From Escherichia coli (GTDB lineage Bacteria > Pseudomonadota > Gammaproteobacteria > Enterobacterales > Enterobacteriaceae), in the NCBI RefSeq assembly GCF_003790525.1, contig NZ_CP033635.1: a stretch of 64,000 nucleotides of DNA; one strand, given 5' to 3'. The notes beneath the pieces were generated by a model, which was given only the letters and a program-made list of their open reading frames with translations, ran no database searches and was not told the DNA's origin. The position numbers and the translations under genes were made by a program. Below are positions 3,763 to 4,900 of this stretch, piece by piece. Positions within the stretch are counted from its first letter, which is position 1; each line of letters opens with the position of its first letter.

Positions 3763-3806
3763 AATTTGTCGCGTCCCATCAGAGAATTATAAAAATTGCT
3801 AAAATG

Positions 3807-3820
3807 CTAAACCGGTTTAG
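3807..3820. promoter_or_regulatory. perfect 14-bp palindrome CTAAACCGGTTTAG, candidate ScrR (LacI-family) operator upstream of scrY
   Basis: Perfect inverted repeat read directly from the sequence in the scrK-scrY intergenic region. Confidence 0.5.
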
Positions 3821-3865
3821 GTGTTGATAATAAAGCTGACTTTTTAGCCAGAGCAATTATTTTCG

Positions 3866-3879
3866 CTAAACCGATTTAG
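3866..3879. promoter_or_regulatory. second operator-like near-palindrome CTAAACCGATTTAG
   Basis: One-mismatch copy of the 3807-3820 palindrome, 59 bp away in the same intergenic region. Confidence 0.45.
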
Positions 3880-3929
3880 TAAATGTGACAGGCACGACAA
3901 ATCGGGTTACAGATACAACAGCAGGATCA

Positions 3930-4850
3930 CTATTGTGAAGGGAGATCGTGTTGTCGGGGTAAGGCGGTTATCGCGCCTTTAGCCGTGGTCGCCAGAGCAC
4001 CACAAATCTGAGCTTGTGCAATGATTCGTTCAAGCTGTCTGGTATTTGTTGGTATTCCAGAATCAGCCAGACCTGCAAGTAATCCAGCGACAAAAGCATC
4101 TCCTGCCCCGGTCGTATCGACGACAGAAACAGGTTTGGCGGGATAGTGGATAAACTGCCCCTGAAAATACACAAGTACGCCATTTTTTCCTTGTGTAATA
4201 AGCAATAAAGTCAACGAATAACGTTGTACTAATGAATATGCGCCTTGCTGAACCTGGCTTTCGCCACTGATGAATAGCAACTCTTCTTCGGACAATTTAG
4301 CGATATTCGCCAGCGAAAGTGCGCGATCAAGGTATTTCCTTAATAGCGCTTCACTCTGCCAGAGATCGCTGCGGATATTGGGATCAAAACTGATGTTTCC
4401 GCCAGCCTGACGTATTTTCTCCATAGCCAGAAATGCGGTACTTCGGGAAGGTTCTGCACTGAGCGCAATGGAACAAAGATGGAGCCATTCACCCGGCCCA
4501 AATGCAGGAAGGTCACCAGGTTGTAAAAAAAGATCGGCACTTGGGCGTACCATAAAGGTAAAGTTTCTTTCTCCTTGCTCATCAAGTCCTACAGCCACAA
4601 TTGAGGTGCGTTGTTGAGGATCAAGAGACATATAATGTGTATCAACATTTTCTGTACTCAGTGTCTGATACATAAAGCGACCGAAAGGATCATCGCCAAC
4701 TTTGCCAATAAAGGCACTTTTCCCCCCCAGCCTTGCGATACCGACTGCAACATTAGCAGGCGCCCCGCCAGGACACTGTAGTAGTCTCCCCTGGCTTTCG
4801 GGTAATAAATCAACAACCGCATCACCGAGTACCCATACTCTTGCGCTCAT
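3930..4850 (-). CDS. scrK: fructokinase (PfkB/ribokinase family)
   Basis: 306 aa ORF with N-terminal GDAVVD and C-terminal DTTGAGDAF motifs. Confidence 0.85.
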   Translation of the reverse strand: MSARVWVLGDAVVDLLPESQGRLLQCPGGAPANVAVGIARLGGKSAFIGKVGDDPFGRFMYQTLSTENVDTHYMSLDPQQRTSIVAVGLDEQGERNFTFMVRPSADLFLQPGDLPAFGPGEWLHLCSIALSAEPSRSTAFLAMEKIRQAGGNISFDPNIRSDLWQSEALLRKYLDRALSLANIAKLSEEELLFISGESQVQQGAYSLVQRYSLTLLLITQGKNGVLVYFQGQFIHYPAKPVSVVDTTGAGDAFVAGLLAGLADSGIPTNTRQLERIIAQAQICGALATTAKGAITALPRQHDLPSQ

Positions 4851-4867
4851 AAAGGCTCCAATATACT

Positions 4868-4900
4868 AATTGCTAAACTAATTAAATCGGTTTAGCAATT
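4868..4900. promoter_or_regulatory. 33-bp inverted repeat AATTGCTAAAC-N11-GTTTAGCAATT containing a third operator-like copy (TTAAATCGGTTTAG), upstream of scrK
   Basis: Inverted repeat read from the sequence 18 bp upstream of the scrK start codon; shares the GCTAAAC/GTTTAGC half-sites with the two scrY-proximal palindromes. Confidence 0.4.

Follow-up and report, generated by a model that had tools for sequence, protein, structure and literature searches.

Three related palindromes in the scr control regions

What are the three related palindromes that lie in the control regions of the sucrose (scr) genes in a 64-kb stretch of Escherichia coli DNA (contig NZ_CP033635.1; hereafter the window), and which protein would bind them? 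The scr genes lie on the minus strand in two units, scrK and scrYAB(R), whose control DNA amounts to 331 bp. An original prediction, made from the sequence of the window, had described a perfect 14-bp palindrome with two related copies in this DNA and had assigned them to ScrR, a repressor of the LacI family. Our analysis leads to the same assignment. The three palindromes are very probably the ScrR operators of a phosphotransferase system (PTS)-type sucrose regulon, through which both scr promoters would be repressed.

Sequence reading and a pattern search were carried out on the window. The perfect palindrome CTAAACCGGTTTAG was found at 3807-3820 and the copy CTAAACCGATTTAG, with one mismatch, at 3866-3879, both as predicted. 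The third copy, TTAAATCGGTTTAG at 4882-4895, has two mismatches and does lie within a 33-bp inverted repeat (4868-4900), which is not itself a larger operator (see below). Two of the sites precede scrY and one precedes scrK, which is the layout first described. The palindromes carry a central CG with AAAC/GTTT arms, as do LacI-family operators.

Besides these three, no copy with two or fewer mismatches was found in the 64-kb window. From base composition, 0.19-0.38 such copies are expected by chance in 64 kb. First-order Markov simulations (n=200) gave a mean of 0.10 copies, and none of the 200 reached three or more. Only 0.002 copies would be expected in the 331 bp of intergenic scr sequence, where all three copies were observed. 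When three mismatches were allowed, the count in the window was at chance level (4 observed, 2.1 expected). The signal thus rests on the three good copies, on their location and on their clustering. A three-mismatch match at 16342 was considered as an extra ScrR site and was rejected as being at chance level.

Conservation of the sites in other scr loci

A ScrY scan with one genome per species yielded 80 loci, among which 67, from about 25 genera, have scrK immediately upstream of scrY. The counts given below are over 68 loci, namely these 67 and the window, and the scrK and proximal scrY sites were called at three or fewer mismatches. ScrY of the 67 loci is 61-83% and ScrK 59-74% identical to the window proteins, except at one near-identical locus from a metagenome-assembled genome (L065).

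The proximal scrY site was present about 57 nt before the scrY ATG in all 68 loci, with its right half GTTTAGC invariant. The distal scrY site was found in 56/68 loci, and its start-to-start spacing to the proximal site is 58-60 bp in 55 of these 56. In 62/68 loci a scrK site was found 31-51 nt upstream of the scrK start, and its G-CTAAA did not vary. The two scrY sites each have their invariant half, GTTTAGC, on the side of the gene; at scrK it is the upstream half GCTAAA, the downstream half being weaker. The consensus over the 68 loci is (G)CTAAACCGGTTTAG(C), and the three window sites are 0, 1 and 2 mismatches away from that motif. When conservation was scored by column, the operators ranked with the best-conserved stretches of the two intergenic regions. 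Other conserved blocks before scrY are the TTGC of the -35, the -10 block and a CRP-like TTTG...TCACA.

In Klebsiella pneumoniae ATCC 13883 (L027) the sites stand at K-42 before scrK and at Y-116 and Y-58 before scrY, to be compared with K-45, Y-117 and Y-58 in the window. K. pneumoniae reportedly provided one of the two scr systems that have been studied experimentally. A pair of sites ahead of scrY and a single site ahead of scrK were also seen in Aeromonas (L074-L081; for example L077, 2883-2927 and 4532-4545). The gene order is different there, with scrK downstream of scrY, and the scrY sites are 31 bp apart. The distal scrY sites of Aeromonas have a Cra-like left half, CTGAAAC. The 15-kb scr locus of E. 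coli SMS-3-5 (L001) contained no additional ScrR site, the region upstream of scrR included. A Salmonella plasmid (L082) was tried as a proxy for pUR400 and was dropped; it carries a different cluster, of the fructo-oligosaccharide type, with no ScrR sites.

A variant arrangement was observed in Brenneria and Prodigiosinella (L059, L061, L063, L064, L066, L068). At these loci the inner right half of the scrK site is degenerate (CGATTCTT) while GCTAAAC-N11-TTTTAGC is retained, and CAGAATCGGGTTGG stands in place of the distal scrY site. Pectobacteriaceae may have an altered operator grammar.

Assignment of the sites to ScrR

The segment 3700-5000 of the window is 100% identical to the chromosome of E. 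coli SMS-3-5, in which scrR lies directly after scrB (L001, 1673-2680) and encodes a 335-aa regulator of the LacI family. This protein has a LacI helix-turn-helix and a periplasmic-binding-protein fold, and its nearest relatives of solved structure are Cra proteins (best E 1.5e-44). As scrR falls wholly beyond the edge of the 64-kb window, the repressor presumed in the original prediction was invisible in the window itself.

The reading of the palindromes as LacI-family, ScrR-type operators is supported by the CG/AAAC arms, the location at promoters, the presence of scrR at the locus, the layout kept in 56-68 of 68 loci, and the literature. The ScrR motif, a promoter position (relative to predicted starts), a cognate scrR and positional orthology to K. 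pneumoniae were all found together. According to PMC11251922, two 14-bp inverted repeats flanking the -35/-10 of scrY are ScrR operators, with mutational evidence (Cowan 1991; Jahreis and Lengeler 1993). The window sites agree with that description. The downstream scrY operator overlaps the transcription start (PMC11251922). Binding of ScrR, and its release by fructose or fructose-1-phosphate, are known for pUR400 and K. pneumoniae, as stated in the same text. The passage of PMC4521459 that cites Jahreis and Lengeler 1993 has ScrR repress the scrK promoter and a second promoter, named there as that of the scrAB operon. In the supplements of a study of LacI-family regulons (PMC4052901), ScrR regulogs are listed without site sequences or scrK entries.

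Position of the operators at the predicted promoters

A sigma-70 promoter was predicted before scrY. Its -10 is followed by six bases and then by the proximal operator (3820..3807), and the predicted +1 is near 3820. The distal operator lies upstream of the -35 and abuts a CRP-like site (Table 1). With two mismatches to TGTGA-N6-TCACA, the CRP-like site is at chance level in a single sequence, and its distance is counted from a +1 that is itself a prediction. A class I CRP-dependent promoter would have its CRP site near -61.5, -71.5 or -82.5, and the CRP-like site is centred at -71.5 of this predicted +1. Across loci, its offset from the distal operator is a constant 20 nt in 55/56 cases, two or fewer mismatches are seen in 54/56, and TCACA is nearly invariant. 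CRP dependence of scrY has been reported (PMC11251922). The scrY CRP operator is called poorly conserved across species in that paper, which perhaps refers to a different sequence from the CRP-like site seen here.

For scrK, a generic promoter scan found no promoter, and two candidate models were derived from conservation. In model (a), the extended -10 would be TGcTTTAAT (4906..4898) and the operator would lie at about +1. In model (b), TTTAAT (4903..4898) would serve as a weak -35 and TAGTTT (4880..4875) as a putative -10, with the operator inside the 17-nt spacer. The block tGCTTtAAT is conserved directly upstream of the scrK operator across loci. At positions homologous to TTTAAT, Kosakonia, Brenneria and Aeromonas have TTGATT or TTGGTT, and in Aeromonas a clear TTGGTT-18-GATAAT brackets the operator. 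Under either model the scrK operator would be inside the polymerase footprint.

These positions suggest how repression would be exerted. When inducer is absent, ScrR dimers would occupy the three palindromes, of consensus GCTAAACCGGTTTAGC. The proximal scrY operator covers the predicted start (+1 to +14), and RNA polymerase would be blocked there. Since the distal operator fills the gap between the CRP-like site and the -35, its occupancy should also stop activation by CRP and the C-terminal domain of the polymerase alpha subunit. At scrK, the single weaker operator, placed at +1 or in the -35/-10 spacer, would exclude or stall the polymerase, and repression would probably be weaker. Fructose or fructose-1-phosphate formed from sucrose would then release ScrR from the DNA.

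Differential repression of scrY and scrK, which had been proposed from the presence of two operators against one, is plausible. It would also fit the weaker scrK operator, which has a perfect promoter-distal half and a weakened proximal half (ATTTAA), giving two mismatches in the 14-mer. A documented difference between the promoters is that scrY is cAMP-CRP dependent and scrK is not (PMC2148058).

Several points weigh against the ScrR reading or against parts of it. For this E. coli locus the operator assignment is drawn from sequence comparison. The published operator coordinates, especially that of scrK, come through secondary citation. A consensus promoter scan missed the chosen -35/-10 of scrY and returned TTTACT-16-AATAAT, which overlaps the distal operator; the scrY promoter assignment therefore rests on conservation and the literature. 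The transcription starts of scrY and scrK are predictions. The conserved spacing of the scrY operators, 58-60 bp, corresponds to 5.5-5.7 helical turns, so that an in-phase repression loop is not favoured, and cooperation between the two operators is not supported. A repression loop was hence not adopted, the spacing being explained more simply by the promoter that lies between the operators.

The inverted repeat upstream of scrK and the displaced half-sites

The repeat at 4868-4900 has the form AATTGCTAAAC-N11-GTTTAGCAATT. Its 11-nt arms are perfectly complementary, and in a repeat search the pairing extended to 15/17 positions over 4867-4901. The repeat is composed of the scrK operator and a displaced extra half-site, and is not a larger operator. 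The extra half-site, an orphan, makes up the far arm and sits 9 bp beyond the point at which the operator right half begins. A TTTAGC-like hexamer 9-12 bp downstream of the operator right half was found in 46/68 loci, with varying flanking bases. Among loci in which the right half falls short of a full nTTTAGC it was present in 44 of 47, as against 2 of the 21 with a complete right half. In Brenneria, the outer pair is kept though the inner right half is degenerate, as described above. The 11-bp arms are confined to the E. coli lineage.

An orphan half-site was also observed behind the proximal scrY operator, where it forms a direct repeat with 4868-4877. The same 10-11-nt string, TTTAGCAATT on the gene strand, is thus found after both promoter-proximal operators. 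The scrY orphan occurs in 29/68 loci, in 28 of them at offset 8 and in the remaining one at offset 10. In Enterobacter it resembles a tandem 8-bp duplication (TTTAGCAA TTTAGCAA).

It is a tentative and rather unlikely proposal that TTTAGC, placed 8-12 bp (about one helical turn) past the operator right half, is an undescribed functional element at both promoters. One possibility is that it offers ScrR a third contact, through an alternative register or the recruitment of a second dimer. Another possibility is a hairpin in the leader, with TTTAGC as its 3' arm, by which scrK mRNA stability would be set. Either of these would explain the 33-bp inverted repeat that had drawn attention originally. 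The orphan half-site may also be the relic of a tandem duplication of about 10 bp, or may already be covered by the 1993 paper.

The hairpin could be taken further, as the main role of the 33-bp repeat, for example as a stem-loop by which the leader RNA of scrK would be stabilised. The 33-mer folds as RNA with -10.6 kcal/mol (z -7.35), and a GCTAAA...TTTAGC pair with a variable loop of 11-14 nt occurs in 46/68 loci, including Brenneria with its degenerate inner half. The distribution of the displaced TTTAGC between incomplete and complete right halves is in line with such a role. However, the presence or absence of the half-sites largely follows two clades, and this distribution is confounded by phylogeny. 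The stem core is invariant and identical to the ScrR half-site, and the flanking bases pair in 54-63% at two positions, again following clades. Compensatory changes therefore cannot tell whether the half-site is part of a hairpin, an additional contact for ScrR or the relic of a duplication, and none that separates the models was seen. Moreover, pairing goes past 6-7 bp only in E. coli, most of the repeat would be untranscribed under scrK model (b), and no Rfam family matched 3000-5600 at E<=1. Since 62/68 loci conserve the inner 14-mer as a full palindrome, a hairpin would come in addition to the operator role and not in its place. A repeat that acts mainly as a hairpin is thus considered improbable.

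Cra as an alternative binder

Cra (FruR), binding instead of ScrR or besides it, would couple the sucrose genes to glycolytic flux. The closest solved relatives of ScrR are Cra proteins, and the operators share the frame CT[G/A]AA[A/C]CG..TT..AG with the Cra box TGAAACGTTTCA (PMC4521459). Deletion of cra in E. aerogenes lowered scrA and scrB mRNA by 25-32% (PMC4521459), but this effect is small and could be indirect. The Cra-like left half in the distal Aeromonas sites also points towards Cra. In the window, however, the G that Cra requires (TGAA) is replaced by A in all three sites, and its A/T by C: they read CTAAAC or CTAAAT and lack the G of CTGAAAC. Over its central 12-mer, site 1 agrees with the Cra box in only 8/12 positions. 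The A at the specificity position is kept in 62/62, 56/56 and 59/68 of the orthologous sites, which argues for a distinct specificity. A ScrR-FruR hybrid with the DNA-binding domain of ScrR is said to have recognised scr and not fru operators. Binding of Cra at these sites is thus judged very unlikely, and ScrR is retained as the probable binder.

The notion that the palindromes are functionless, chance symmetries of AT-rich DNA was refuted, though the motif count is at chance level with three mismatches: three copies with two or fewer mismatches, against 0.1-0.4 expected, fall in 331 bp, and site position and sequence are conserved over about 25 genera while the surrounding intergenic DNA diverges, so that the probability left to chance is negligible.

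Organization of the scr locus

The earlier gene assignments in the scr region were right, and all the genes are on the minus strand. Genes and control elements are listed in Table 1.

Table 1. Genes and control elements of the scr region in the window. Spans on the minus strand that run from high to low follow the direction of transcription.
Feature	Position	Strand	Description
scrK	4850..3930	minus	fructokinase, NF006957 at 506 bits
scrY	3762..2245	minus	LamB-like porin
scrA	2184..814	minus	sucrose PTS IIBC, TIGR01996 at 650 bits
scrB	5' part from 806, truncated by window start (1-813)	minus	sucrose-6-phosphate hydrolase
scrY proximal operator	3807..3820	minus	CTAAACCGGTTTAG; flanked GTTTAGC on gene strand; about +1 to +14 of predicted promoter
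scrY distal operator	3866..3879	minus	gene strand CTAAATCGGTTTAG; lies between CRP-like site and -35, at about -59 to -46
Predicted scrY sigma-70 promoter	3827..3856	minus	-35 TTGCTC (3856..3851), 18-nt spacer, -10 TATTAT (3832..3827)
CRP-like site	3884..3899	minus	gene strand TGTCGTGCCTGTCACA (TGTCG-N6-TCACA); centred about -71.5 of predicted +1; abuts distal operator
scrY orphan half-site	3794..3804	minus	gene strand TTTTAGCAATT; TTTAGC at 3798-3803; 8 bp after proximal right half
scrK operator	4881..4896	minus	gene strand GCTAAACCGATTTAAT; ends 31 nt before scrK ATG
Candidate scrK promoter elements	4875..4906	minus	two models, inferred from conservation
scrK orphan half-site	4868..4878	minus	gene strand GTTTAGCAATT; GTTTAGC 4878..4872; far arm of 33-bp repeat

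The scr region is carried by 987 of 5426 complete E. coli genomes (about 18%) at 95% identity or more. It forms a 6.7-kb island inserted beside ygcE. In scr-negative genomes the match to the window begins only at about 5010, so that the entire region upstream of scrK is part of the island. The junction of island and core is a few bases at most from the stop codon of ygcE (5015-5017). In plasmid-borne copies of the same scr locus the shared sequence ends at about 4971. A GCCGGG-N12-CCCGGC inverted repeat is present at 4975-5002, between the limit of plasmid sharing and the ygcE junction. Farther along the window, the divergent intergenic region of yqcE and ygcW holds a perfect consensus CRP palindrome, TGTGATTACGATCACA, at 7976-7991 and a second copy with one mismatch at 7919-7934.

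Comparison with known systems

The ScrR operator system is already known and was worked out experimentally in the 1990s, and the reading offered in the original prediction is correct. Sequence reading alone had thus recovered a real, experimentally established repressor-operator system, whose annotation is here transferred to the chromosomal scr island of E. coli. Understanding of LacI-family regulation is unchanged by this finding. For the engineering of sucrose-utilising E. coli, obvious targets for derepression are the three operators together with the CRP-like site.

The nearest counterparts are the scr systems of pUR400 (Salmonella) and K. pneumoniae (Cowan 1991, J Bacteriol 173:7464; Jahreis and Lengeler 1993, Mol Microbiol 9:195), which have the same gene order, scrK and scrYAB(R). 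They likewise have a LacI-family repressor, with fructose and fructose-1-phosphate as inducers (PMC11251922). ScrY of the window is 74% identical to that of K. pneumoniae. The window copy differs in being chromosomal, beside ygcE, in the weaker proximal half of its scrK operator (ATTTAA), and in the 11-bp repeat arms found in the E. coli lineage only. The E. coli scrY alignment of Stephens et al. 2024 (PMC11251922, Fig. 5) shows the same type of locus, and the two ScrR sites are highly conserved in eight species. That paper covers the scrY promoter only; the scrK site and the orphan half-sites are not discussed there.

The Cra (FruR) boxes of the fru operon and of glycolytic genes are likewise palindromes of 14-16 bp with a central CG, and they are bound by the closest paralogue of ScrR. 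The ideal ScrR and Cra 16-mers share 12/16 positions. At the specificity positions ScrR has CTAAAC-C and Cra has CTGAAA-C, and both of these positions are largely invariant across the scr loci.

The scrY control region also resembles lac with its O1, O3 and CRP site: both have a main operator at the start, an auxiliary operator upstream beside a CRP or CRP-like site, and a LacI-family repressor. The differences are that ScrR, of 335 aa, is without the extra C-terminal length of the 360-aa LacI, that the scr spacing of 58-60 bp is not an integral number of helical turns, and that the auxiliary operator of scr lies between the CRP-like site and the -35 and does not overlap that site.

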